Virus record (IMG/VR): IMGVR_UViG_3300027833_000012 | Span: 112,257 to 176,256 of that record | Source of the DNA: a virus | Lineage: Duplodnaviria; Heunggongvirae; Uroviricota; Caudoviricetes | Length of the DNA stretch: 64,000 bases | Strand: one strand, 5' to 3' | Part shown: piece by piece, positions 3,942 to 56,562 of the stretch | Layout: the number at the start of each line of letters is the position of its first letter | How positions within the stretch are numbered: position 1 is the stretch's first letter | Program-made: the position numbers and the translations under genes | Notes under the pieces: generated by a model | What the model was told of the DNA's origin: nothing | The model's database searches: none | The model's input: only the letters and a program-made list of their open reading frames with translations

Positions 3942-5822
3942 TTAGTAGGAATTTATTCCATTTGTTTCTAATGTTATTTTAACGGTATCACTAAAATCAG
4001 TACTAACTATCGGATTACCACATACATCAACGAACCTTTTTTCATTCTTAACCCTATAATAAAGTAAATCACCAGCATTACCAGATAAACTTAAAGTATT
4101 ACTATAACTAACTCTACCAATAGTGTAATCATTGGTCACTTCATTTATTATTGTGTTAAATTCTTCATCAATACTTAATTGTAAGTAAAATTTACCATTA
4201 TTTTTTTGTGGTGCGGTAATTATGTTCCAAGAGACTAAAATTTCATCTGAAGAAACATTACTATCAACTATATTTGCGTTATAATATACGTTTATTAAAT
4301 CACCTACAACTAAGTCACCTTCCATTATCAATCTTTTTGGGTTACTAACCGATTGGTAATAGTCAATACCATTAGATAATGTAACACCATTTAGTGTTAA
4401 AAATGTATCGTTAAAGTTAATAGGTTTTAATTCTAAAAATACTTCATATTTTTTATTTTCAGTGTTATAATAAACCAAATTATCACCCTCACCATCTGTA
4501 ACACCACTTTGTATTATACCTACAATATCAATAGTATCATTTTTTAAATTATTTGTAACTTGATTAAGTGAATTATTTGTATAAATAAATGTTAATACAT
4601 CACCTTCTACTGACCCACCATTTAAAGTGACTAGTGTTTTTGTAGAACTCGTTAATTCTATTAATTTAAATGTATAATCTATCCCTGGGGATAATACTAA
4701 ACCGTTAAGTGTTAATATAACATCACCCTCACTCCTAGGAAATCTAAACTCATTTGTTTGTCCATCAAGAATAATACTTAACTGAGTTAATGAACCTAAT
4801 TCATTAGCTTTTTCTTCCGTAGATTCTATAATAGGTTTTTCCACTTTACTAAATGCAGTAAAATAGTAATCCTTGTTTGAATCATATAATTGATATTTAT
4901 CACCATTTTTATTTACTGATGTTGTATATGACATATTCATTAAATTACCAAATTCAGTACAAACATTATGTGTGAAATAACCCTTAACTAAGAAATCACC
5001 ATCTAATGGTAGTGAATTACCATCTATAGTTTCCGTAAGGCCACTAGTCCCACTAATATCATCCCAAAGGTATATATCTGAAGTATAAATAGATTTATTA
5101 TCAAATACATTTAAAACGTCATTAAATTTATATAACTCATACCTAAATTTAACATCATTATTGATAAACTCTTCAATATTATCCGTAAAATTAAATTCTA
5201 GTGGTATATTAACATCATCTGTAATTTCATAAATATTCAAATCGTTAATAGTTTTACCATTAAAATCTAAATCCACAACAACATCACTAACATCACAATC
5301 CCCAGTAAAGGGTGTTGTTGAATTACAACCAGAATTACTCATATTAAAACTTACATTTGTTGAAATTTCAATTTTAAAATTACTTGCTGAATTTATTTGA
5401 TTTATGTAATATAAAACACCACTTGTGGTGTAGTTGTAACCTAAATTGGTGAAGGCTAAATTTAAAAAATCATTTAACTCGATTAGGGTGGGTGAAGAAC
5501 CATTAAATGTATCACTTGACGTTATTTCATTACTATAAACTAGTTTATCATCTTCATAAATATTCCCAAACCAAGCTGTTTTACTAATACATGAAGAATT
5601 TAACACATTTTCAGCTAAACATTCTTGAATACTTTTTTTTAGTGAACTAAACCTTATTGAATTTACGTTGAAAAAAATTTCATCACATTCTATCTTATTA
5701 GCACCAGTAACATTAAATACTGGGGATTTAAATACGCATATATCTGAACTACTACTAATAGGTTTTGTTAAATTCCTAAGTAAATTACCATTTTGATTAT
5801 ATATTTTATCTTGTGTACTCAT
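3942..5822 (-). CDS. Putative virion structural protein with repeated beta modules
   Basis: Two copies of LTLNG(L/V)xLSxGIDY motif typical of phage tail/baseplate proteins; FN3-like C-terminus (YYRVKN). Confidence 0.5.
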   Translation of the reverse strand: MSTQDKIYNQNGNLLRNLTKPISSSSDICVFKSPVFNVTGANKIECDEIFFNVNSIRFSSLKKSIQECLAENVLNSSCISKTAWFGNIYEDDKLVYSNEITSSDTFNGSSPTLIELNDFLNLAFTNLGYNYTTSGVLYYINQINSASNFKIEISTNVSFNMSNSGCNSTTPFTGDCDVSDVVVDLDFNGKTINDLNIYEITDDVNIPLEFNFTDNIEEFINNDVKFRYELYKFNDVLNVFDNKSIYTSDIYLWDDISGTSGLTETIDGNSLPLDGDFLVKGYFTHNVCTEFGNLMNMSYTTSVNKNGDKYQLYDSNKDYYFTAFSKVEKPIIESTEEKANELGSLTQLSIILDGQTNEFRFPRSEGDVILTLNGLVLSPGIDYTFKLIELTSSTKTLVTLNGGSVEGDVLTFIYTNNSLNQVTNNLKNDTIDIVGIIQSGVTDGEGDNLVYYNTENKKYEVFLELKPINFNDTFLTLNGVTLSNGIDYYQSVSNPKRLIMEGDLVVGDLINVYYNANIVDSNVSSDEILVSWNIITAPQKNNGKFYLQLSIDEEFNTIINEVTNDYTIGRVSYSNTLSLSGNAGDLLYYRVKNEKRFVDVCGNPIVSTDFSDTVKITLETNGINSY

Positions 5823-42600: not shown

Positions 42601-45600
42601 TTAAATTCCCACTTCTTTAGCTAAGTTTATATTATTACTTAACCCAGTTATCCAATCAACCTTAAGTGTGCCGTATGGTAGATTGATAATCTCATTAATT
42701 ATTTCATTTTCTTCTTCAAATAAGAATATATCTATTAATATTAAACCATTAGTTGATTCAGAAATTATAATCTCATCATCACTAGCAATACCCGATGCGT
42801 TTTCACCAGTTATTATGAAACTACCCTCACCATTAGGGTTAGCTATTACTTTACCTAATAGTAAATTATTCGTATTAGTCATAAAATCATTCACTATAAT
42901 ATTAGCACTAAATTCACCATTTAAAGTATAAGTAGAATTACTCTTATGTTTATACTCAAAACCTAATGTTATAACGTCATCATCTTCATCTTTAAAATAT
43001 GAAACTAATTTTAATCCATCAATAACATCAACATCATCTTCAACATTATCAATTGATTCAATATCCTCAATATCTTGTAATGCTTCAAATTCAGCTAGGA
43101 CTTCTTGACTTACAATTAATTCACCCTCAGTTAATGATTTATCTTTATCAGCCTCATTAATTTTATCAGTTTTATCTGGAAAAGAACCAGCAATTAATTC
43201 ACCACTTAATTCACCTGGTTTACCATTAACCTTAACTTTTTCAGCTCTTGGGTCATAAACCTCAGTATTTGCAAAATAATTAAATGAAATTGCATTTTGT
43301 AATTTATTAATTGGTGAATTTAAACTTGAACCACCAATAAATGCAAAACTCATATTTACAGTTACTATCATCGGTTGAACACCAACACCTTCTGGGTTTA
43401 AATCCCAAACTAAAGGTTCATAATCAAAACTTAAATTATCTATAATTATTTTAGTATGGTAAAAATCACCTAATCTAAGTATACATACAGGTGGTCTACC
43501 AAACGCTAAATTCTCTGGTTGGTCTTTATCATTTGTTGTTGGTCCTTGCCTAGTACATTGTTGTAAAAAGTTAAGTCTAGAATTGAAACCTTCTGGTGTA
43601 ATTGAATGGAATCCAGGATGAAAATATTTTATTTTATCACTTATTCCATTAAATACAACTCTATCAGTTTGCTCTAGTTTTTCAAAATAATTACATTCAG
43701 TATAAAATCTAGATACTGGGATATTTAAAGTTTTATCTGGTTCATTAACATCTTTAGCGATAACTTCGGGTTCTATTTCTTTTTTCAATTTTGGGTCATA
43801 CTCTAATTTTATACTAACCTTTCTAACCCTTTTACATTCTTCTCTATCTTGACCACCTTTACCAGTACAACCTGTTCCAGTTTCTCCTTCACCACTAAGT
43901 TCTACCTTAACTCTACGCTCACCAAATAAATCATCCGATGAAATTATACCACTTTCCCCAGTTAACCATGTTTTTACACTATTAGCTCTATTTAAAGACA
44001 ATGTATCGTTCTTACTACTACCACCTTGTTGACTAGCATAACCAACTATTTTAAATCTACAATATTTACATTTATTAGATAGGTATGATTTTATCTTTTC
44101 AGTGAATAACGGGTCTTGCCAACCACCATTTATTACCTCACCAGCAATATCAATAGTTTGAGATTGACCATTAAGACCAAAATTTGTTAAATCAGTATAT
44201 GGTGTTCCGTCACCACCGACAGTACCTGTACCATATGTTGTAAATAACCCAAACCCACTTATTGGTGGTGCTTCAGAATTAAATGGGTTATTAATTAAAC
44301 CACCAGGTGTTATTTCATAATCTATTTTTTCATTAGGTGTTTCTGAAAGATTTTTTAAACCATTTTCATAAAGTACTGGTAAGGCAAAGTCATCATTAGG
44401 GAAGTATATATCGAAATCTACAGCTTTAACATCTTCATCATCTGTTGTTGTTTTAACCTTAACATTTTCTGATACTTCAAGAGAATTCTTTTCATCTTCA
44501 CTAAGTAACCTTTCCCTAAATTCTGGTATATCAAGACAACCAGCAATCATTGAATTTATTTTCTCATCTTTTTGAAAATTATCAAGAGTATCATTCATGA
44601 AATTTAAGTAATTAGGGTGGTCAATAACTATTTTCCAAGATAAATTACCAATTCTTTCAGTATTATTGTACGTGTATAAAGGTTCACCTCTACCTATGAA
44701 ATTATTCTTATCCCAATTAACTGATGTTGATTCACTGAATGAAATATCATAAGGTGGGAACCACATTATTCTACCTTTTTTACCAGTTAATAAATCACCA
44801 TCACCAATTTCACATGGTAATAATTTAGCTAGACTACCACTATCTGCCCAAGCTAAATTCTCAATTGAAAACATGAACTTTTTAATATTATCACCCTTGT
44901 ATGGTCCTATTTTAGCAAAACCATTATCATCTAATACTGAAAAACCACTATAATCATCACTCTTAATTCTTGGTACACTATTTAAATCACTATGCTTTTG
45001 CATATCTTGTACTTGGCTGTATCTATCAAAAGTTGTCCAAGTTCTACAAAATACATTATCAGCACTTAAGTCACCACCATTTTCAAAAGCTACTTGACTT
45101 AAGACACCACTACCCTTAGACATAAAACCTAATTGAACATTACTTTGTATTTCACTAGACTCTTGTGCATTGACAGCTTTACCAGACACTAGTGTTCTCA
45201 TTCTATTAGTTTTAAATAGTGATTGAGTTTTGTATAATAAAGTTTTAGGGTTGGTGAATGTTTTATTTTGATTAGCTGGACTATCTTCTACTTTATTATC
45301 CCTTTCATCAATCCAAGAATGTTGTTTAACCACACCACCATCATTACCAAAAACGTAAATATCGTCAGTTCTTTCATCAAATCCACTATTATTTATTAAA
45401 CCATCCAACTTATAAGTTGATTGAGCCATTGGTGAGTTAGAATCAGTATTATTTGTTGCCTCTATATTTAGGAAATCAATAACTTTACCACTATTATCAC
45501 CAAATGCGTAAATACTTGGATTTATACCATCAGCAGTGTTAGCACCCTTACTAATTCTAGTATCTTCAAATGCTGGTGCATAACCACCTCTTTTTCCTAT

Positions 45601-46593
45601 TAAATTTGGATTAAGGTTAGAATTAATATTACCAAATAATGCTAATACTTGACCTTTACCAGTATTAATAATCATATTATTAGCTCTTTCAATATTAGCA
45701 ACACCTACATTTGTTTTTGTACTGAATGTGTATATTGAAGCTGACTCATCTAAAATACTAACAGGTCTTTTGAAACCTACCATTTTTTCAAGTAAATCAA
45801 CACCCTTACCTAAAGTACTCTTGGCAACAGTTATTTTATAATTAGGAACTATTAAATCACCACCCATAGCTAAACTAAGTGGATTGGTATTTATATTACC
45901 AATTGTTTCTTCTTGAACGTTAAAAGCTATGTTATTACCAATAGCAGTTGCTAAGTAACCAACACCTAGTTGACCTAATTTTGTATCATTTATTAAACCA
46001 CCAGCATTTAAAACTCTACCAGCTAAAGAACTTCTAACATCAAAATCAGGTACTAACCCACCACCATTAGGGTCGAAACCTACACCACCACCAGATAGTA
46101 AACTACCTATAACGTCTAAAGGTTGAGTTGAAGGACCACCAATATTTAAATTACCATTCTCATCTAAATAAGAATCCATTTGCATAATTGGTGCACCAGT
46201 AGTGTTAGTTAATAAAGAAACAGGTTGGTTATCTGTATTTGAAGATTTGTAAGTGTTTTTAGATAAATTTGTAGTTTGATATTCATCACTATTCGTTAAA
46301 ACACTTGATAATGAAGATTCACCAGGAATATACTCTATACCAATCTGTTGGTAATCATTATCCTCTACTTGGAATTTATTATTAATTATGTTTAAATCTT
46401 TATGGAATTCTCCTTCAACTTCTATATCTGGTGAAGCTGAAACTGACTCAGGTGGTAACCCTACGTTAGTAGGAAAACCAACTCCATTTAATAAAGATTC
46501 TAAACCATTATTTGAAATTGTGTCTGAAACTATATTTCTATTAAGTAAGAAATCTCTAAGACTTGGTGATACACTATTTATACTGTTTGGCAT
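42601..46593 (-). CDS. Tail-tube initiator/baseplate protein with inserted OmpA-like peptidoglycan-binding domain
   Basis: IMWFPPYDISFSESTSVNW...IGRGEPLYTYNNTER and FGRPPVCILRLGDFYHTKIIIDNLSFDY flank IYFPND...GYASQQG...NDTLSLNRANSVKTWL...RVRKVSI. Confidence 0.7.
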   Translation of the reverse strand: MPNSINSVSPSLRDFLLNRNIVSDTISNNGLESLLNGVGFPTNVGLPPESVSASPDIEVEGEFHKDLNIINNKFQVEDNDYQQIGIEYIPGESSLSSVLTNSDEYQTTNLSKNTYKSSNTDNQPVSLLTNTTGAPIMQMDSYLDENGNLNIGGPSTQPLDVIGSLLSGGGVGFDPNGGGLVPDFDVRSSLAGRVLNAGGLINDTKLGQLGVGYLATAIGNNIAFNVQEETIGNINTNPLSLAMGGDLIVPNYKITVAKSTLGKGVDLLEKMVGFKRPVSILDESASIYTFSTKTNVGVANIERANNMIINTGKGQVLALFGNINSNLNPNLIGKRGGYAPAFEDTRISKGANTADGINPSIYAFGDNSGKVIDFLNIEATNNTDSNSPMAQSTYKLDGLINNSGFDERTDDIYVFGNDGGVVKQHSWIDERDNKVEDSPANQNKTFTNPKTLLYKTQSLFKTNRMRTLVSGKAVNAQESSEIQSNVQLGFMSKGSGVLSQVAFENGGDLSADNVFCRTWTTFDRYSQVQDMQKHSDLNSVPRIKSDDYSGFSVLDDNGFAKIGPYKGDNIKKFMFSIENLAWADSGSLAKLLPCEIGDGDLLTGKKGRIMWFPPYDISFSESTSVNWDKNNFIGRGEPLYTYNNTERIGNLSWKIVIDHPNYLNFMNDTLDNFQKDEKINSMIAGCLDIPEFRERLLSEDEKNSLEVSENVKVKTTTDDEDVKAVDFDIYFPNDDFALPVLYENGLKNLSETPNEKIDYEITPGGLINNPFNSEAPPISGFGLFTTYGTGTVGGDGTPYTDLTNFGLNGQSQTIDIAGEVINGGWQDPLFTEKIKSYLSNKCKYCRFKIVGYASQQGGSSKNDTLSLNRANSVKTWLTGESGIISSDDLFGERRVKVELSGEGETGTGCTGKGGQDREECKRVRKVSIKLEYDPKLKKEIEPEVIAKDVNEPDKTLNIPVSRFYTECNYFEKLEQTDRVVFNGISDKIKYFHPGFHSITPEGFNSRLNFLQQCTRQGPTTNDKDQPENLAFGRPPVCILRLGDFYHTKIIIDNLSFDYEPLVWDLNPEGVGVQPMIVTVNMSFAFIGGSSLNSPINKLQNAISFNYFANTEVYDPRAEKVKVNGKPGELSGELIAGSFPDKTDKINEADKDKSLTEGELIVSQEVLAEFEALQDIEDIESIDNVEDDVDVIDGLKLVSYFKDEDDDVITLGFEYKHKSNSTYTLNGEFSANIIVNDFMTNTNNLLLGKVIANPNGEGSFIITGENASGIASDDEIIISESTNGLILIDIFLFEEENEIINEIINLPYGTLKVDWITGLSNNINLAKEVGI

Positions 46594-46921: not shown

Positions 46922-49390
46922 TTATAGTGGGTTTGGGTTCAATTTACCACCTCCAATGGCCATTCTAACTTCTTCCTGTATCTTAGTCGTAATATCTCTA
47001 ATAAACTCTCTATCGTTAGATAAACCATCTCCAATCGTGTCTAACCAAGAACTATCAGACTTGATATTTATATTTATGTTTAAATCGTTAAATTTATGTA
47101 ACATTTTACCATCAACACTAGAATTACCACCACCAGTTATAGCTTTAGCCAAATCTTTATTCCCGTTAACATTAGTACCAGCAATCATAGTATTATCATC
47201 AACGTTCATAAATTTATCATTACCATGAAATTGTATAACACCATCTTTAACTTGAGTTGCCTTTTGTTTAGTGTCACCAAATATAACATCACCAGAAGCG
47301 TCACCTATTTTATCACCAGCTAAACCACCAGCAATACCACCAATCAAACCACCAATAGCTGTACCAACACCTGGGAATACCATAGTTCCAATTGTAGCAC
47401 CTAAAGCCGCACCTCCCCATGCACCACCTCCAGAAGCTAAAGCTCTAACACCAGTCCTACCTACATTCTCACCAGTATCCATACCATTTTCTTTATTAGT
47501 AGTGTATTCATCGTATCCACTAATACCAGCTGATAATACACCAGCACCAGCACCACCAATCCCTTTAGCGAATTTTAACATTTTACCACCTTTACTTGCA
47601 ATTCCACCTCCAGCAGATGCAACACCACCTCCAGCAGATGCTACTGTATTAAACCCCATACCTAATTGTACCCCATTAGCGTACCATTTAATCGCACTAC
47701 CGAGTAAAGAAAGTCCTAGTGTACTTATAGCAGTAATCAATGGGTTATCAATCATAAAACCACCTACAGTACCAATAATATCAGCAGCAGTCTTACCGAA
47801 GTCCTCTATTTTTTTAAAAACCTCTTTATCCTTAAGCATTGTCATGAAATCTTTTAAAGGTTTTTCCAAACCAGATTGTAAACCTCTAGCAAATGGTAGT
47901 AATGTAGATTTAAAAATATCTCCCATATTTTTAATAATATCATCAAATGTCTCACCATTTTTAGCTCTTTCAGCAAGTGTTTCTTTTTGGTTTTTATAAT
48001 CATCAAGTATAGCGTCATTTAACTCACTAATCTTTAGTGGGTCATTTGTACCTAATCTAACAACAGCTTCACCATCTTTATTAATCTGAGCTAAAGATGC
48101 TACTAATTCTCTATCTTCATCATCTACAATTGAACTAGATACCATTGAACCAAATCTTTCAATCTTTTTTTGTTGTACAGCCATTTCCTGTAATTTCTCA
48201 ACAGCAATACCAGTAGTATTTGAAATCTCACGCATCCTATCAGCGGCCAAACCACCTTGAATTTCAAAAGAATTTGTTTCTTTATTATAACTTACAAATT
48301 CAGCTGTTGCTTTACCTATATCTTTTGCAAAACCAGCAAAATCATTTCTAGCTTTAAACATTAATTGCATAGGGTCACCTAACTTTGCGAATTCACCACC
48401 CATAACTTGTAATTTAGCAGCCATCTCAACAGCACCTTCTGGTCTAAAAACTTTTTCAGCTAATCCAGAAATACCATCCATATCTAATTTAAGTCTAGCA
48501 GCTTCATTAGCCATTTTAGCTAAACCAGCAACCCCACCTTTAAATGTAAATCTCTGAGCTAACCTTAAATTCTTTTGTAGGTTTTTAACAGCCTTATCTG
48601 AGTTAACACCCATTTTAGCGGCAGTTTGAACAGTCTCTTCCACTAAGTCTCTAGAACCAGTTACAGACATACCAAATTTATCCATTTCAGAAGCCATCAT
48701 AGCAGCACCTTCAGCACCTAAACCAGTACCCTTAGCCATCTCACCTATTGCCACTAAACCTTCTTCACTTAGAATTACTGACCTACCTATCTCTTCAGAA
48801 TAACTTTGTTGTGCTTTAGCTAAATCTTTAGTTTGGATACCCCAATCATAAGTAGTCTTAGATGCAGTATTTATGTTATCTGCAAATCCATCAGAATTAG
48901 CCTTAACAATATTCATACTTTTACCACTATCCCTTATAGCTTTATCAACTTCAAAAATACCAGTACTTTTTAATTTACCATAACCTGATTTAATTAATCC
49001 TGGTGTGGCCTTAAGACCCTTTTGGATACTATTCCAACCCAAAGCTAATTTATTAACACTACCAACCTGTGTTGCTAATTCTTTAGTAGCATCTTCTTGA
49101 ACTTTAAGATTTGCTTTATTACTTTTTAATATCTTTTTTAAAGCCTTTGCTTTTTGTTTATTATCAGAAATTTCTTGTTTTGATAATCCTAAAGTATTAT
49201 TCTTTAAATCAGAAATTTCTTTTTCTAAAAGCTTGTTTTGTTCTTTAATGAAATTAATATTTTTTTCAGCCTCACCAATATCTTTAACCGCTTTTAAATA
49301 CTTACTTGCATCTTCAGTTAAATCTTTTTGTAGTTTAGCATTTTCCTGTAAACTTTTTTTCCACTTATTGAATTCTTTATTGCTATCCAT
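46922..49390 (-). CDS. Tail tape measure protein
   Basis: Long helical Ala/Lys-rich sequence, position downstream of sheath/tube/chaperone, C-terminal glycine zipper GGAWGGAALGATIG...GGLIGGIAGGLAG. Confidence 0.8.
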   Translation of the reverse strand: MDSNKEFNKWKKSLQENAKLQKDLTEDASKYLKAVKDIGEAEKNINFIKEQNKLLEKEISDLKNNTLGLSKQEISDNKQKAKALKKILKSNKANLKVQEDATKELATQVGSVNKLALGWNSIQKGLKATPGLIKSGYGKLKSTGIFEVDKAIRDSGKSMNIVKANSDGFADNINTASKTTYDWGIQTKDLAKAQQSYSEEIGRSVILSEEGLVAIGEMAKGTGLGAEGAAMMASEMDKFGMSVTGSRDLVEETVQTAAKMGVNSDKAVKNLQKNLRLAQRFTFKGGVAGLAKMANEAARLKLDMDGISGLAEKVFRPEGAVEMAAKLQVMGGEFAKLGDPMQLMFKARNDFAGFAKDIGKATAEFVSYNKETNSFEIQGGLAADRMREISNTTGIAVEKLQEMAVQQKKIERFGSMVSSSIVDDEDRELVASLAQINKDGEAVVRLGTNDPLKISELNDAILDDYKNQKETLAERAKNGETFDDIIKNMGDIFKSTLLPFARGLQSGLEKPLKDFMTMLKDKEVFKKIEDFGKTAADIIGTVGGFMIDNPLITAISTLGLSLLGSAIKWYANGVQLGMGFNTVASAGGGVASAGGGIASKGGKMLKFAKGIGGAGAGVLSAGISGYDEYTTNKENGMDTGENVGRTGVRALASGGGAWGGAALGATIGTMVFPGVGTAIGGLIGGIAGGLAGDKIGDASGDVIFGDTKQKATQVKDGVIQFHGNDKFMNVDDNTMIAGTNVNGNKDLAKAITGGGNSSVDGKMLHKFNDLNININIKSDSSWLDTIGDGLSNDREFIRDITTKIQEEVRMAIGGGKLNPNPL

Positions 49391-49394
49391 AATA

Positions 49395-50759
49395 TTAATC
49401 TACGTAAACTTTAACTTCTCTCTTTTCTTTATATTTTTCATCACCAATAAACATAATGACTTCACATTCATAAATATTCTCATCTGCGTTTTTTAAAGAT
49501 AATAAATTAATTTTATGTGGACCATTCTTATTAACTTTAAGACTTTTTATTAAAACACCAGTTAAAGACCTTTTTATAACCTTACCAAAATATTTTTCAC
49601 CTTCATATAATTTAACATTATTTTTTACGAAGTATTTATTAGTTAATTCATATCTAACTTCCATATTAACCCTGTACAATTCTTTAAAGGTATGTGGTTC
49701 AGACCCGTCAATAATATCACCACTTCTAGAATTAAAATATTTTGTAAGTATGTTTTGTAAAGCAAAAAAACCTTGAGGGTTTTTACCAGTTATTAAATCC
49801 CAAAAAGTAGGTTTTTTTGAAAAAGCATTTCTTAAGTTTGGACTTTGTAACGCTAGTTTCATTGCTTCACTTTTACTTAACTTTTTAACCTCACCTTCTA
49901 CTGAATCTTTATCATTTTTAAATTCTTTTTCTTCAGGTGATACATTTGATTCATCAAAAGCTACAATACCGTTAATTGTAAATGGTTCTTTATTTTTTTC
50001 ACCATCATCATTAGTGGTATTTAAATACCTATTCATCTTTATTGTGAATTTATAAGAATCGTTAGAAGTGTCTAACTCAACATTTTCAGTTGAAGCATCG
50101 AACTCTAAGTCAGAATCAACCAATTCACTGTAACCCCTAGCACCCTTACCCTTAGTTGTAACTAACTCTAGGTTTGTAAATTTTGAACCAGAATTAATAA
50201 CAGTAAAATACAATTCACTATCATCATCTAATGTGAATTTATAACTACTACCATCTTTCATAGAGTTTAATTCTCTAACTAATTCCTCTAACTCTGGTGT
50301 GACTTCTTTTTTATCATCAACTTTATTATCAGCTTTATTATCAGCTTCTTCTTCAGGGTCTATAATATCTATTGTAGTTTTAGGATTTTTAAGTTTGTCG
50401 TAAATTTCTATTTTTTCTATATTACGCTCTTTCTTTTCATTCCATTGTCTTACATCCCCAATTTTACTAAGTTCTTTTTGTTTATGGATGTATTTTACAG
50501 TTAATTCATTACCTATTAAATCGCTAGGTGTGAAAAAATAAATGTTATTACTATTTACTGTACCAATATCAACACTTTCCATTCTAACTTGGTTTCCAAC
50601 ATTATCTAATACCCTAAATTTTAGTTGATTCGCATTTTCTTTAGTTATAACGATTATATCACCCTTATCTAAATTAGGAACAACTTTATTTATTTTATCT
50701 TCTAAAATTAAAGATTCTATTAATTTTAATTGGTTTTCATTTATTTTTATCTTTCTCAT
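49395..50759 (-). CDS. Hypothetical protein, possible head-internal protein
   Basis: N-terminus MRKIKINENQLKLIESLILE resembles leader peptides common in jumbo-phage head proteins. Confidence 0.5.
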   Translation of the reverse strand: MRKIKINENQLKLIESLILEDKINKVVPNLDKGDIIVITKENANQLKFRVLDNVGNQVRMESVDIGTVNSNNIYFFTPSDLIGNELTVKYIHKQKELSKIGDVRQWNEKKERNIEKIEIYDKLKNPKTTIDIIDPEEEADNKADNKVDDKKEVTPELEELVRELNSMKDGSSYKFTLDDDSELYFTVINSGSKFTNLELVTTKGKGARGYSELVDSDLEFDASTENVELDTSNDSYKFTIKMNRYLNTTNDDGEKNKEPFTINGIVAFDESNVSPEEKEFKNDKDSVEGEVKKLSKSEAMKLALQSPNLRNAFSKKPTFWDLITGKNPQGFFALQNILTKYFNSRSGDIIDGSEPHTFKELYRVNMEVRYELTNKYFVKNNVKLYEGEKYFGKVIKRSLTGVLIKSLKVNKNGPHKINLLSLKNADENIYECEVIMFIGDEKYKEKREVKVYVD

Positions 50760-50791: not shown

Positions 50792-50827
50792 AACAAAAAA
50801 AATACCTAACAGATTAGCTAGGTATTT
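50792..50827 (-). terminator. Terminator after tail chaperone downstream frame
   Basis: mRNA AAAUACCUAGC-UAAUCU-GUUAGGUAUUU followed by U-tract, overlapping the stop at 50814. Confidence 0.7.
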
Positions 50828-51092
50828 CTCCATTTTTTAATTTACTCTTAAGCATTTGCCCACTAACCCTAGTATTTCTACTACCCTTTGAGTTACTACT
50901 TGTTGATTTATTCGATTGTTCCTCCATCACCTCTTTTTTCCTCTCATTTTCATTCATAAAAAGTTGAAGGTAATATCTTCTCTCATGGGTTGGCATACTA
51001 AGTATATCTTGGTAACCAAAACCTAAGTGTTTTGTACATGCATATATCTCTTCTAATAAGAATTTCTTATAAGATGGTGTCAGGCCAAAAAA
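50814..51092 (-). CDS. Tail chaperone extension (gpT-like) frame, probably reached by frameshift; annotated 60-aa ORF is its 3' part
   Basis: +1 frame open from the U7 run: FFGLTPSYKKFLLEEIYACTKHLGFGYQDILSMPTHERRYYLQLF...; first ATG only 32 codons in. Confidence 0.65.
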   Translation of the reverse strand, partial: FFGLTPSYKKFLLEEIYACTKHLGFGYQDILSMPTHERRYYLQLFMNENERKKEVMEEQSNKSTSSNSKGSRNTRVSGQMLKSKLKNGEIPS

Positions 51093-52263
51093 AGTTGAGG
51101 TTAAGGGGAAGAAACGTTTTTATAGACCCACCTCCAGGAGTCTTAACATCGATTCTTAAATCAATGCCACATTCAAGCGTCTGAACAAATGCTCTTAGCT
51201 TTTGAACTTCTAGAGTTCTAATATTTTTAACATATTCTGAAATAAACCCTTTATCTCTATTACCATCAACTTCCACTATTTGACTTTCAAGAACATAAGT
51301 GTTTTCATTATTAATTAATTCTCCAGAATCCTTATCATCCTCTATTAATTTCTCAATAGCCTCAACCTCACCAACATTAAGTAATTTAATTTTCAATTGT
51401 GTTCCACTTAAAGGCATTTTAAAATCAAATAAACCTTCAGAATCTGGGTCAGCCTCTAACTCAACAGTTTTTAACTCATTTAAATCAACTATAGTATCAA
51501 ATGGTATACCATTTTTATCTGTAACTTGAATAGGGTATTTTTCACCGTAACCAGTAGCTCTAAGCCATATCATAATAGCATTCCTATCACCAGTATGTAA
51601 ATCTTTATAACGTAAACCTGGTTCTAATAATTTTCTATTAATTAAAATTTCAAGAAAATCACCACTTTCAATCAAATTAGGTGATGTAAGTATATTTTCA
51701 TCAGCCGTTGTAAGGTAAGCAACCTTAACAGATTTTTTCTTATTTGGATAAGTTTTTCCTCTAGACGGTAAAGGAATAACATCAAAAGCTTGATTCATTT
51801 GTGGTTGACTTATTTTCTCAATGTAAGGGTCGTAATCAACAACCTTTTCTTCTTTAGTATATTGAGTTGTACTAACTTGCCTCTCCACAACATCCGAGCT
51901 TCTCATATTAGTTGAATTCTCAACATAATTAGCTTCATCTCCATAAGCATATGGGTTTGAATTTGCTCTTGGTTTTTCACTTTCTTTCTTCTTAGTAAAT
52001 CTCCTATCAATTTCTTCAGCTTTAAGTTGGTCTTGTTTCAACTTTTCCTCACGAATCCTAATTTGCTCTTCAGTATTTTTTTTCATCTGTAAAGCCGCTG
52101 ACTCTTCACCAGAAGAAATAGTCCCACTATAATCACCTTTAGATATTCTTTCCCTATTTTCTTCCTCATATTGTCTAGCAATCCTAGTACCATTCTCATT
52201 AGCCTGGTTAATCATATTACTACTATTATTTTTAGGAAATACGTTTGGTTTTTTTTCACTCAT
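51067..52263 (-). CDS. Baseplate hub assembly / tail assembly chaperone (T4 gp26-like) with long N-terminal extension
   Basis: VIPLPSRGKTY, VAYLTTADENILTS, DLHTGDRNAIMIWLRATGYGEKY, ends LNLNFFWP. Confidence 0.75.
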   Translation of the reverse strand: MSEKKPNVFPKNNSSNMINQANENGTRIARQYEEENRERISKGDYSGTISSGEESAALQMKKNTEEQIRIREEKLKQDQLKAEEIDRRFTKKKESEKPRANSNPYAYGDEANYVENSTNMRSSDVVERQVSTTQYTKEEKVVDYDPYIEKISQPQMNQAFDVIPLPSRGKTYPNKKKSVKVAYLTTADENILTSPNLIESGDFLEILINRKLLEPGLRYKDLHTGDRNAIMIWLRATGYGEKYPIQVTDKNGIPFDTIVDLNELKTVELEADPDSEGLFDFKMPLSGTQLKIKLLNVGEVEAIEKLIEDDKDSGELINNENTYVLESQIVEVDGNRDKGFISEYVKNIRTLEVQKLRAFVQTLECGIDLRIDVKTPGGGSIKTFLPLNLNFFWPDTIL

Positions 52264-52375: not shown

Positions 52376-53101
52376 ATGTTAAATAAAGAAAATAATTTTT
52401 GGTTCATAGGTGACACACATGGTAATCATAAGTTAATTATGTATGAAATAAAACAAAAAGACATAAAAAATGTTGATATGTTTCATGTTGGTGATTTTGG
52501 TGTAGGTTTTACTAGTGATTCAAATGAACAGGACCAATTAAATTATTTTAATGGTTTTTTAAAGAAAAGGGGTATAAATTTACATGTTTTTCGTGGTAAT
52601 CATGATAACCCAGATTACTTTAAAGGTAAACATATATTTTCTAATTTAAAATTACATGAAGATTATACTGTATTAGAAATTGAAGGTAAAAAAATACTAG
52701 GTGTTGGTGGTGGTATCAGTATTGACCGTGAACCTAGGAAATTAAACCATAAAAAAATTACATGGTGGGAAGACGAGATTTTTATTTTAGACGAAGATAA
52801 AATAAATGAAATAAGTGGTGTTGATATTTTAATAACCCATACAGCACCATCTTTTTTACCACCAATTAATGCGGATGGTAATTTTCCTTGGATTGTTAAA
52901 CAGTTCGTACCTGATGACCCTAACCTTTTACATGACTTAATTAATGAACGTGAAAATTTAAGTGAGTTACTTCTTTTATTAGAGGATAAAAATAATATAA
53001 AACACCATTTTTATGGTCACTTTCATAGTAATTATATGACATTAATTGATGGTTGTGTACATATATGTTTAGAAATAGGTCAATTTTATGAGTTAAAATA
53101 A
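52376..53101 (+). CDS. Calcineurin-like metallophosphoesterase
   Basis: GDTHG, HVGDFG, RGNHD, ITHTAP, GHFH motifs. Confidence 0.9.
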   Translation: MLNKENNFWFIGDTHGNHKLIMYEIKQKDIKNVDMFHVGDFGVGFTSDSNEQDQLNYFNGFLKKRGINLHVFRGNHDNPDYFKGKHIFSNLKLHEDYTVLEIEGKKILGVGGGISIDREPRKLNHKKITWWEDEIFILDEDKINEISGVDILITHTAPSFLPPINADGNFPWIVKQFVPDDPNLLHDLINERENLSELLLLLEDKNNIKHHFYGHFHSNYMTLIDGCVHICLEIGQFYELK

Positions 53102-53149: not shown

Positions 53150-53638
53150 TTAGAATAAAAGTATTGCTCTATCGAAACGTAAATCAGCTGTAATATCAGC
53201 TATTGAATCGTCATCCATAGATAAGTCTCCAAAATTAACTGTTGTAAGCATAGTACCTTGAAGTACCCATTTCTCAATAACAACTCCAGTAGGGTCTAAC
53301 ATTTCAACTTCGATATCTTTTTTATATCCAGCCGCATAACCTTGTCTACCAGTTATAGATTCAGATTGTAAACGAACCCATTCCATAATTGCTTGAGCCG
53401 CAGAAGGACCAATAGGGTCTCTAAACGTTACAGAAATTGCTTCCCAAGTAAATCTACCTATTACCCAAGTAGATGTGTTAAGGAACGGTATTTCTACCTC
53501 ATTTTGATTAATTGATGGTCTAGAAGCAGAAGCTAACCACCATTCTTGAATACCTAATTCTGCTGGAAACCTTAAAAGCCATCTATTCTTTCTTTTTGGT
53601 TCATAAGGTACGGGCATTTTCATTAGTAAATCAGCCAT
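53150..53638 (-). CDS. Tail tube protein (T4 gp19-like)
   Basis: YEPKRKNRW, GRFTWEAISVTFRDPIGPSAAQAIMEW, GYAAGYKKD, LDPTGVVIEKWVLQG. Confidence 0.9.
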   Translation of the reverse strand: MADLLMKMPVPYEPKRKNRWLLRFPAELGIQEWWLASASRPSINQNEVEIPFLNTSTWVIGRFTWEAISVTFRDPIGPSAAQAIMEWVRLQSESITGRQGYAAGYKKDIEVEMLDPTGVVIEKWVLQGTMLTTVNFGDLSMDDDSIADITADLRFDRAILLF

Positions 53639-53718: not shown

Positions 53719-56562
53719 TTATATATCATCGAAGCTTGCTCCAGTGTTCATTACATTGAATTCTACACATATGAATTCTAAAGCGGTAGTTGGTTTTATA
53801 AAAATTCTACCACATAACTCATTTCTATCTATAGATTCAGGACTATTATCTAACACAACTCTAAAGTCAGTAAGACCTCTTTCACTCCTTATATTATCTA
53901 ATATAGGGTTAACTAGTGATAAGAATTGATTTCTTACGATATCATCATTTTGTTCGAATAAAAGTCTAATAGATACAGCTGATATTAATTTTCTAGCTTG
54001 TAATAATAATCTTCTAACGCTAAGTCTATCAAGAGCACTCTCTTTAACTTGTAATGTCTTATTACCCCAAATTTTAATACCTTCAGTAGCCCAAGTTGTA
54101 ACTGGGTTAACTCTACCTTCGTAAAGTGTATCTCTATGTTCTTGGGTTAATTTAGTTCTAGCTTTAACCGCACTAACATCACCTCTTTGTACACCAGCTA
54201 CAGCAAACCAAGGGAATGAAATGTTATCAGTTAATGCAATATTTCTAACTACATCTCTTGTTGGTGGTATGTAAATATTAACACCGTTTTCACTATCTTT
54301 AACCTGTACCCAAGGCCAGTAAGTTGCAGTGTAGTTAGTATCAAACTGTCCATCAAGTGTGTCAATAACATCTTCTGCTAATAAAACATCACCTGAAGCA
54401 TCAGTATCTGGTGTAGTTACAATATAAACTGAATCAGCTCTTTTTTGTTCAACCATTTCTATAGTTTCTTCTACCAATGTTGCATTATCGAAAGTATCAA
54501 TACCTGGTGTTGCCAATACGTTAATATTAACAGATTCTGGGTTTTGTAATGTCCAAATAGCTTCTAAATAAGCGTAATAATCTGAACTAATACCAGCGTC
54601 ACCACTAGTTAAAGCTCTATTTTCAAAATTACCACTAATTAAACCTTCTTGACCTTTAGAACCATTTATAGTGTAAGAATCTCTATTTGTTCTTCTAGTT
54701 CTATAAATATCCCACCCATCAAATCCACCGTAAGGTGCAAATGTAAATTTACGTGAGTAAATCTTTTCATAATCAGTACCTTGAACACCACTCTCATCTC
54801 TAAACTCAGCATTACCTGTTTCAAATTCAAAGTTTGGTGTGAATGTATCACCATTAGAGTTCATAACCTCTTCTATATTATCTATAGTAGCACCATTTGC
54901 ATCAATATCCATATGGAAACCTTTAGTGAATCCTGTAAGTATTGAAGAATCACCACTTCCTGGTTTACCTTTATAATCGAAGAAATCTTGGTCAATACCC
55001 TTAGTGTTAGATAACCCTAAATAGAATTTTCTCTTATTCTCAAAAACATCATAGTTTTTCTTATACTCTATTGAAGGAGTTTGAACTGATGTGTTAGTAT
55101 TACTTTGGTAATCTCTTGTAGGGAACCCTACGAAACCAGCTGGGAAAGCATCTGAAGTATCAGACTCTTCATCCAACTCAACAAGTACGTAATTTGATTT
55201 AGATTCAAATTCACCATCAAGTGTACCTATTTTTCTAGATATGAAATTTCTAGAAGATGGGTCCATTGAACACCTAGTGAATCTTTCTAATACGATTGGT
55301 TTAGCGTCAGTATCACCATAAGCTCTTATCTCAACGTCAAATTCTCTATCATCTAATCTAATGTTTTTAATAGAAATTTTAAATTGTTTATTTGCAGCGT
55401 TACCATCAGATATTGTCCAAAGTCTAAATAATCTAAGTAAGTTAGTACCTCTTAATTCAGAAACAACCCACGGGGTAACCGCTGGTTGGTATTCTTCTTT
55501 ATAATTTGAAAATTCATCGTTATATTGTACAAATGAAGAAATATTAATACCTCTTACTTTATTATCGTTAACTAAATCTTTAAACATGTTTTCAAAAATC
55601 TCTTCAACATATAATGAAGTTTTACCATCTTGAGCACCTCTACCTAATACTCTAGTTATGTAGTTCTTTTTAGTTCTATCAAAAGATAGTGAATAACTAA
55701 ACGCACCACTATTACTTGAAGTACCTTCTAAAGTGAAATCACCCTTCGGGTCAGAACTAGCATCAGTTGCTGTAGAATTAAAATTAATATCAGAACTATT
55801 TTCTATATCAAAATTAAGGATTTCATCACCATCATATTTAGCTCTACTCTTAAGTAATGCTACTATTTTATTATCAACATCTGAATAACCCTCACCAGTG
55901 TACTGTATAGTAGTACCCGAAGCTGTCCCAGTTATATTACCGTCTACGTCAGTAGTAGTAGAAGTTACATATAAATCCATAGATGCCCCAACAAACTGTG
56001 AACCAGTCTTAGTGAATTTTTGACCTATATTGACACTAGTACCAGTAGCAGATGTAGGTAAAAAACTTAAATCAGTGTCTAATAAACCATCATCAAAAAG
56101 TGTTTGAACTACAGGGTCAGCAGAAACTACTGATGATATTAAACCATCTGATGTTGCTGAAAATGTTATTAACGGGTCATAGTCAGTTGATGCTTGTGAT
56201 TCAACTATAGTAGTTGAGTCCAAACCTGAATCTAATGTTATACCCCAAGATAAACCACCATCAAATCCAGAAAATCCAAGTACTCTTGTTACGAATAATT
56301 GATTTGATTCTGAAAGATATGATTTAGCAATATAAGGTAACTCATATTTAGGTGCCCCAGTATCTTTTACTTTTGTAGCATTTAAACCACCGAAGAAATT
56401 TCTAAATTCATCATAGTTTCTAACAAAAATAGGTTGAAATGCTGGACCTTGAGTTGTCTCCCCGACAACACCAAGAGTTGTTACCCCCACTTGTCTTGTT
56501 ACAAATGTTAGGTCATTTTCTGATGTATACACACCAGGACTTACGAATACTTTATCAGCCAT
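53719..56562 (-). CDS. Tail sheath protein (T4 gp18-like)
   Basis: FVSPGVYTSEND, VGETTQGPAF, FAPYGGFDG, NINVLATPG, YTATYWPW, PWFAVAG..RG, RVNP, IWGNKTLQ, RLSVRRLL, IFIKPTTALEFI. Confidence 0.95.
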   Translation of the reverse strand: MADKVFVSPGVYTSENDLTFVTRQVGVTTLGVVGETTQGPAFQPIFVRNYDEFRNFFGGLNATKVKDTGAPKYELPYIAKSYLSESNQLFVTRVLGFSGFDGGLSWGITLDSGLDSTTIVESQASTDYDPLITFSATSDGLISSVVSADPVVQTLFDDGLLDTDLSFLPTSATGTSVNIGQKFTKTGSQFVGASMDLYVTSTTTDVDGNITGTASGTTIQYTGEGYSDVDNKIVALLKSRAKYDGDEILNFDIENSSDINFNSTATDASSDPKGDFTLEGTSSNSGAFSYSLSFDRTKKNYITRVLGRGAQDGKTSLYVEEIFENMFKDLVNDNKVRGINISSFVQYNDEFSNYKEEYQPAVTPWVVSELRGTNLLRLFRLWTISDGNAANKQFKISIKNIRLDDREFDVEIRAYGDTDAKPIVLERFTRCSMDPSSRNFISRKIGTLDGEFESKSNYVLVELDEESDTSDAFPAGFVGFPTRDYQSNTNTSVQTPSIEYKKNYDVFENKRKFYLGLSNTKGIDQDFFDYKGKPGSGDSSILTGFTKGFHMDIDANGATIDNIEEVMNSNGDTFTPNFEFETGNAEFRDESGVQGTDYEKIYSRKFTFAPYGGFDGWDIYRTRRTNRDSYTINGSKGQEGLISGNFENRALTSGDAGISSDYYAYLEAIWTLQNPESVNINVLATPGIDTFDNATLVEETIEMVEQKRADSVYIVTTPDTDASGDVLLAEDVIDTLDGQFDTNYTATYWPWVQVKDSENGVNIYIPPTRDVVRNIALTDNISFPWFAVAGVQRGDVSAVKARTKLTQEHRDTLYEGRVNPVTTWATEGIKIWGNKTLQVKESALDRLSVRRLLLQARKLISAVSIRLLFEQNDDIVRNQFLSLVNPILDNIRSERGLTDFRVVLDNSPESIDRNELCGRIFIKPTTALEFICVEFNVMNTGASFDDI

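Follow-up and report, generated by a model that had tools for sequence, protein, structure and literature searches.

We have analyzed the possible recoding of a tail gene in an uncultured giant phage of the Caudoviricetes, within a window of 64,000 nucleotides that spans positions 112,257 to 176,256 of the IMG/VR record IMGVR_UViG_3300027833_000012. The whole viral record comprises 187 kb, with an estimated completeness of 53%. The gene of interest is related to T4 gene 26 and lies on the minus strand at 51067–52263. Translation in the zero frame gives a product of 398 amino acids with the C-terminus LNLNFFWPDTIL*, in which residues 1–155 form a poorly conserved, charged, helical N-terminal region and residues 156–398 the gp26-like domain. 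The minus strand reads AAC TTT TTT TGG CCT GAC ACC ATC TTA TAA at the 3′ end of the gene, and the protein ends NFFWPDTIL*. The run of seven T nucleotides occupies 51093–51087, and the zero-frame stop codon lies at 51069–51067.

A second reading frame overlaps this end. The +1 frame is closed by a TAA at 51122–51120, nine codons before FF; from the run on it reads FFGLTPSYKKFLLEEIY... and stays open to a TAG at 50816–50814. The +1-frame extension thus occupies 50814–51086 on the minus strand, with 90 codons plus TAG, and belongs to the long form only. Its first ATG comes 32 codons past the run, and is the start of a 60-amino acid open reading frame (ORF) at 50814–50996 in the ORF list. The −1 frame encounters a stop after 4 codons. 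When the run is read as a single four-base step, a stop-free protein of 482 amino acids results (P0275). A terminator-like hairpin with a T run, at 50831–50796 on the minus strand, overlaps the end of the +1 ORF. An initial annotation of this DNA had proposed a programmed +1 (or −2) frameshift here, and on re-reading the sequence we found all its particulars to be correct, i.e., the NFFWP end, the U7 run at 51087–51093, the upstream TAA, the 32 ATG-free codons, the end at 50814, the terminator and the fusion length of 482 amino acids.

The assignment of the gene as gp26-like is also borne out. The short form matches PF12322 (T4_baseplate) with 33.3 bits against a cut-off of 24.5, residues 172–380 aligning with positions 9–205 of the 219 in the profile, and it matches phrog_150 at positions 3–221 of 282 (2.5e-12, 47.8 bits). 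The joined form scores 55.5 bits against phrog_150, and residues 156–439 now cover positions 3–280 of 282. T4 gp51 and gp26, which PHROGs holds as one family, fall on positions 13–280 and 14–235 of the same profile, respectively. There are 1812 homologues of the short form in the protein collection, and the 120 best-scoring ones listed are 331–415 amino acids long. In an alignment of 25 homologues FFWP is invariant and lies 2–4 residues from the C-terminus. T4 gp26 ends EFFELL*, with an FF motif at the same place as in the window protein.

We fetched 80 related viral loci, and analyzed the 65 distinct sequences among them. All 80 carry TTTTTTTGGCCT(A/G)AC, with a +1 ORF of 88–96 codons, a zero-frame stop codon 2–4 codons past FFWP, and a −1 frame that stops after 4 codons. 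The 12-mer TTTTTTTGGCCT, at 51082–51093 on the minus strand of the window, is invariant in 65/65 loci, although the proteins are only ~50% identical. Summed over the 65 distinct loci, the 87 codons past the run contain 689 stops in the zero frame and 510 in the −1 frame, compared with just 1 in the +1 frame. The stop counts and the invariant 12-mer show that the overlap of the reading frames is more than chance. Variability at third positions follows the zero frame upstream of the run and the +1 frame downstream, the switch occurring exactly at the run. Position 12 is A or G, a change that is silent (Leu) in the +1 frame and replaces Asp by Asn in the zero frame.

The +1 peptides have a mean column identity of 60% from the first residue, and are conserved from FFGLT..YK..LLEEI on. 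Thus the two features that the initial annotation had singled out for comparison are conserved: the U run in the 80 close loci and in 7 distant lineages, and the stretch of the second frame ahead of the ATG from its first residues. TTTTTTTGGCC is found in six very divergent lineages, whose extensions are 27–38% identical, and likewise in the cultured Microcystis phage Mel-JY01. T7GGCC is kept despite this low identity of the extensions, and the 12-mer itself is invariant throughout this U7 clade. By all these comparisons of sequence, it is a conserved recoding site.

Does the site depend on all seven T nucleotides? Scanning the viral collection with TTTCTTTGGCCTRAC gave ~51 distinct true gp26-like junctions among 80 fetched loci (TTT CTT TGG CCT), and scanning with TTCTTTTGGCCTRAC gave ~21 (TTC TTT TGG CCT); the other matches of both scans lay in unrelated contexts and were due to chance. 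TTT CTT TGG CCT, with a conserved +1 ORF, also occurs in Flavobacterium phage immuto. The megaphage LR756508 has TTT CTA TTC, again with a conserved +1 ORF. Neither of these distant relatives has a homopolymer, which first pointed to slippage by the ribosome. The only element common to the three site types (TTTTTTTGGCCT, TTTCTTTGG and TTCTTTTGG) is YUU_UGG_CC. Since the three clades share this core, the full U7 is unneeded, and all of them are compatible with a +1 slip in the P site. Re-pairing of both Phe transfer RNAs (tRNAs) on U7, as originally envisaged, is not required. We had also considered that the first UUU was needed for re-pairing in the E site, and dropped this idea because the TTC TTT TGG clade shows the codon to be dispensable. 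TTT makes up 87% of Phe codons, and the occurrence of TTT as the first codon in the U7 clade is approximately as codon bias predicts; the chance that it would always be TTT is ~0.1 for ~15 independent lineages (roughly 8 at third-position identity <0.6, plus the 7 distant ones).

The only conserved pairing found around the site is between TTTCTTC (51114–51108) and GARGARA (51053–51047; GAAGAGA in the window), two arms on the minus strand that lie 55 nt apart and bracket the shift site. The TTT CTT of the upstream arm is invariant at synonymous sites in 64/65 loci. The pairing is 99% maintained in the close clade, with all seven pairs present in 59/65 loci, and the changes are one-sided. Both arms are constrained by coding, the downstream one lying inside the LEEI codons of the +1 frame, and most of the distant lineages are without the pairing.

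Considering these sequences together, we think it probable that the gp26-like gene is decoded in two ways, into a short and a long form, by a ribosomal +1 slip at UUU_UGG, and that it is a tail/hub assembly chaperone. Most ribosomes would read UUU UUU UGG CCU in the zero frame and reach the stop codon eight codons after the start of the run, giving the short form of 398 amino acids. A fraction would pause with tRNA-Phe on the second UUU (51090–51088) in the P site and the UGG (Trp) codon (51087–51085) in the A site. The P-site tRNA would then slip one base forward onto the overlapping UUU, with GGC (51086–51084) read next, and translation would continue for 90 more codons to give the long form of 482 amino acids, with the junction ...LNLNFF-GLTPSYK.... 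The tryptic junction peptide predicted for a +1 shift is TFLPLNLNFFGLTPSYK. The long form would gain a small helical domain and a basic tail, and, if lambda G/GT and T4 gp26/gp51 are a guide, the two forms would cooperate transiently in the assembly of tape measure, hub and tube.

A number of points weigh against this interpretation. RNAalifold revealed no conserved 3′ hairpin or pseudoknot near the site, and there is no upstream Shine-Dalgarno-like stimulator. With no conserved stimulator, the efficiency of the shift is not predictable. The phage encodes its own tRNA-Trp, which would counter a hungry UGG codon. The chaperone role is suggested by the position of the gene and by what is known of T4 gp26/gp51 and lambda G/GT, i.e., by analogy. 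The extension and the C-terminus of gp51 show weak similarity (hhalign probability 25–32%, E ~5e-4, over 28–32 columns). Lastly, a U6 transcript in the U7 clade would yield the identical 482-amino acid protein.

This last point leads to transcriptional slippage, in which the polymerase would drop one U (or add two) on the T7 run and the edited messenger RNA would encode the long form. Seven U nucleotides are at the lower edge of slippage-prone runs, and there are exactly seven in the 65 close loci and the 7 distant lineages. However, the sister clades with TTTCTTTGG and TTCTTTTGG have the same two-frame layout with runs of only 3–4 bases (U3–U4), and polymerase slippage is therefore excluded there. 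The constancy of TTT as the first codon is explained by codon bias, and to have a different mechanism in each clade at a homologous site is less parsimonious. We thus regard slippage by the polymerase as unlikely.

Alternatively, the downstream frame might be an independent small gene, translated from the internal ATG at 50996, or else by non-canonical initiation or re-initiation, with no joined protein being made. Gene callers do predict fragments of 48–117 amino acids in hundreds of relatives, and in the relative from Listeria phage LIS04 there is an ATG at the start of the +1 ORF. Against this, no start codon is conserved. The +1 frame lacks any ATG, GTG or TTG between the upstream stop and the run in 31/65 loci, the position of its first Met varies from 18 to 59 codons downstream of the run over the 80 loci, and conservation begins at the run and not at a Met. 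The ATG in the window encodes the conserved Met of an MPT.ERR motif. A separate gene is accordingly very improbable, and the joined product is favored both by its apparent collinearity with phrog_150 and gp51 and by a natural fusion that we found in one uncultured lineage.

In that lineage the gp26-like domain and the extension are fused in frame in a single protein of 293 amino acids (P0264), whose junction AAT CTA TTC GGT is without a run of bases. The contig has, in order, the tube gene, a short gp26-like paralogue ending DFFYPNTN*, the long paralogue, a 297-amino acid ORF and a tape-measure-like gene. There are two paralogous genes, and the short and long forms are therefore made from two genes in this lineage. 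As judged from its sequence, P0264 indicates that the joined protein is a functional natural product and that both forms are kept.

The fusion also bears on the direction of the shift, which had been left as +1 or −2. If the ribosome shifted by −2 on the U run, the product would read ...NFFFGLT..., with three Phe residues, and on U7 the P-site tRNA-Phe could re-pair perfectly at −2 too. In the TTC TTT TGG clade, on the other hand, a −2 slip would land on UCU, and a −2 shift is therefore excluded there; in megaphage LR756508 re-pairing is possible only at +1 (UUU to UUC), and in the natural fusion just one pair of residues, LF, precedes the G. The +1 alternative stands, while the −2 shift is, if anything, slightly less probable even than the independent gene. 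A sequencing or assembly error in the homopolymer, a type of sequence that is error-prone, or a decaying gene can be dismissed as an explanation, as the same T7, position of the zero-frame stop and intact +1 frame occur in >80 independent assemblies from many samples, and the short-form homologues consistently end 2–4 residues past FFWP.

If the gene is decoded by a ribosomal +1 slip, the two forms may be compared with the products of T4 genes 26 and 51. T4 gp26 (208 amino acids) and gp51 (249 amino acids) are hub assembly chaperones that are absent from the finished structure (PMC3004832, Table 2). The short form belongs to the gp26 family by both PF12322 and phrog_150, and the joined form spans the full phrog_150 profile as gp51 does. 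PF12322 covers residues 1–201 of gp51, and is followed by a C-terminal tail. Profile–profile comparison places the extension motif Y..D.L.MP..ERR..L weakly on the last 30 residues of gp51. The gp51 tail family phrog_634 matches the joined form with E = 0.19 only, and its hidden Markov model found nothing in the whole genome. Comparison of the single T4 gp26 and gp51 sequences with alignments of this family by hhalign was uninformative. The joined protein appears to be collinear with gp51, so that T4 genes 26 and 51 look like a two-gene version of the arrangement, with the homology being weak. We favor, with rather less assurance than for the shift itself, the equation of gp26 with the short form and of gp51 with the long form.

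There are also clear differences. T4 has two separate, divergently transcribed genes and no frameshift; its gene 25 begins at the gene 26 stop codon, and so there is no extension at this place. Two CxxC pairs (zinc-ribbon-like) are present in T4 gp26 and gp51, whereas the window protein has none; the CxxC motif is present in the distant relatives L088, L090 and L095. In Acinetobacter phage vB_AbaM_Berthold (H38, MN709128.1 119798–120547) the T4 gp51 homologue is named 'tape measure protein assembly chaperone', and a chaperone reading of gp51 therefore exists in at least one annotation.

The predicted structure of the extension comprises a small helical domain, a linker and a short basic helix, with a predicted local distance difference test score (pLDDT) of 81. 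Its match to DUF6760 (PF20546) is weak (23 bits, gathering score 27); the same family is matched at E < 0.01 in 15/35 relatives, all below or near the cut-off. Neither a sequence search nor Foldseek with the predicted model gave a credible match to the extension in the PDB. The AlphaFold2 model of the 398-amino acid form was poor (mean pLDDT 57.6), too poor for a fold search. Complex prediction for the tube protein with the extension gave a score of 0.00, which is not evidence either way.

The gene is located in a tail module on the minus strand. The order is tail sheath (53719–56562; phrog_23, 2.8e-59), tail tube (53150–53638; phrog_4542, 8.6e-28), an oppositely oriented metallophosphoesterase gene, the gp26-like gene with the +1 ORF, an ORF of 454 amino acids (49395–50759), tape measure (46922–49390; phrog_167, 1.2e-19) and a protein of 1330 amino acids with an OmpA domain. 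The gene had been placed between those for tube and tape measure, and the order agrees, being downstream of the one and upstream of the other; it does not directly flank either, as the phosphoesterase gene and the 454-amino acid ORF intervene. In relatives the order is tube, gp26-like gene, +1 ORF and then directly tape measure. The 454-amino acid ORF has no match in Pfam, PHROGs or NCBIfam, and neither the joined protein nor the tape measure protein has a match in NCBIfam. The two-gene lineage (L087) has its 297-amino acid ORF of unknown function (L087:2573–3466) where the window has the 454-amino acid ORF. The calcineurin-like metallophosphoesterase gene (52376–53101, plus strand) breaks an otherwise co-directional tail operon. 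The 1330-amino acid protein (42601–46593, minus strand) has its OmpA-family domain, PF00691, at residues 833–915.

Elsewhere in the same record, outside the window, ARAGORN identified 39 tRNA genes (G000:C1 18259–71037 and 84758–85124). They include tRNA-Trp(CCA), tRNA-Phe(GAA), tRNA-Gly(TCC) and an unusual tRNA-Gly(ACC), as well as a tRNA with a CTA anticodon (of amber-suppressor type, called 'Pyl'), two odd ones whose anticodons have two bases, and a transfer-messenger RNA-like gene. The phage tRNA-Trp could influence the decoding of UGG at the shift site.

How does the gene compare with established cases of recoding? In lambda G/GT, and the conserved tail chaperone frameshift that it exemplifies (Levin 1993; Xu, Hendrix and Duda 2004, as reviewed in PMC5009743), there are likewise two overlapping frames that follow the tube gene and precede the tape measure gene, and a single gene gives a short abundant form and a rarer form extended at its C-terminus. 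The second frame is without a start codon and conserved from the slip site, and the site is kept across very divergent phages. The present shift would differ in being +1 rather than −1 on an X XXY YYZ heptamer, the −1 frame stopping after 4 codons in all loci. Moreover, the window gene is several times longer than that of gpG, and a 454-amino acid gene precedes the tape measure gene. No Pfam or PHROG match to chaperone families of the lambda gpG/gpT type was obtained, the matches being to PF12322 and, weakly, DUF6760 alone.

The slip site itself resembles that of prfB (release factor 2), CUU UGA C. Here CUU_U and UUU_U are established +1 slip codons, and UUU is among the most slippery P-site codons (PMC10274946). 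Both sites have YUU in the P site followed by U, with re-pairing on UUU, and the A-site sequence UGG C is one base from the UGA C of prfB. Unlike in prfB, a sense codon (Trp) rather than a stop would occupy the A site, and there is no autoregulatory logic. There is also no Shine-Dalgarno-like element 3 nt upstream; the bases preceding the site, CCTCAAC, include no purine-rich element.

Forward slips in tail module genes that yield an extended form have been found before. The +1 frameshifts of phage structural and chaperone genes include those of Listeria phage PSA and the haloarchaeal myovirus HSTV-2, and 350 forward cases among actinobacteriophage chaperone genes (PMC5009743; PMC10274946). 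These concern other protein families and slip sites, and none is reported for gp26-type genes. Our search of the literature found no report of a frameshift in gp26-type genes or of the YUU_UGG site. The view that the shift would extend the existing paradigm therefore has to be qualified: +1 shifts of tail chaperones were already known in other families, and the novelty lies in the gene family and the slip site rather than in the direction of the shift.

As the initial annotation had anticipated, ORF callers miss the joined gene, leaving fragments, split ORFs or gaps in the annotations of relatives. The extension profile collected 471 cluster representatives, nearly all of them fragments of 48–117 amino acids called from arbitrary start codons. 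The GenBank entries of Mel-JY01, immuto and LIS04 contain no joined coding sequence, and show split ORFs or an empty gap. In Listeria phage LIS04 (L084, OQ999172.1) there is a 230-bp 'gap' at 4690–4930 between the 'baseplate hub' and tape measure genes, which holds an unannotated +1-frame ORF. This ORF overlaps the gene end at GAG TTT TTT AGT, and an ATG of its own lies just upstream. Megablast of the region and tblastn of the extension against GenBank phages gave no match. A search for longer proteins containing the extension gave only one chimeric gene call, P0123, a 289-amino acid 'pyruvate dehydrogenase E1 alpha'. In this and two other metagenome proteins, P0156 (with a Rossmann-like N-terminus) and P0198 (335 amino acids, with the extension at its start), part of the extension is joined to unrelated sequence. 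For all three, a chimeric gene call or a local rearrangement is the probable explanation.

For lambda-like phages, the frameshift in the tail chaperone gene has become textbook knowledge, and tails of the T4 type have been regarded as the exception. We find T4 gp26 homologues in the classical chaperone position, and their +1 recoding site is deeply conserved. In current annotations, both of cultured phages and of metagenomic contigs by the thousand, the gene is split or overlooked, which bears both on phage annotation and on frameshift predictors. The signal is simple, YUU_UGG_C, with a sense codon in place of the stop codon of prfB, and for T4 the hypothesis that gp26 is the G-like form and gp51 the GT-like form is testable. 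A broader interpretation, which we hold as lightly as we would its opposite, is that YUU_UGG_C may be widespread as the sense-codon counterpart of the +1 site in prfB. The aquatic myoviruses that would use it to set a gp26/gp51-type ratio of short to long form would be a very large group, with giant phages of Bacteroidota at one end and relatives of cyanophages at the other. T4 genes 26 and 51, long a puzzle, would then be an unlinked, two-gene version of the lambda G/GT principle, and the tRNA-Trp encoded by the phage could tune the ratio.

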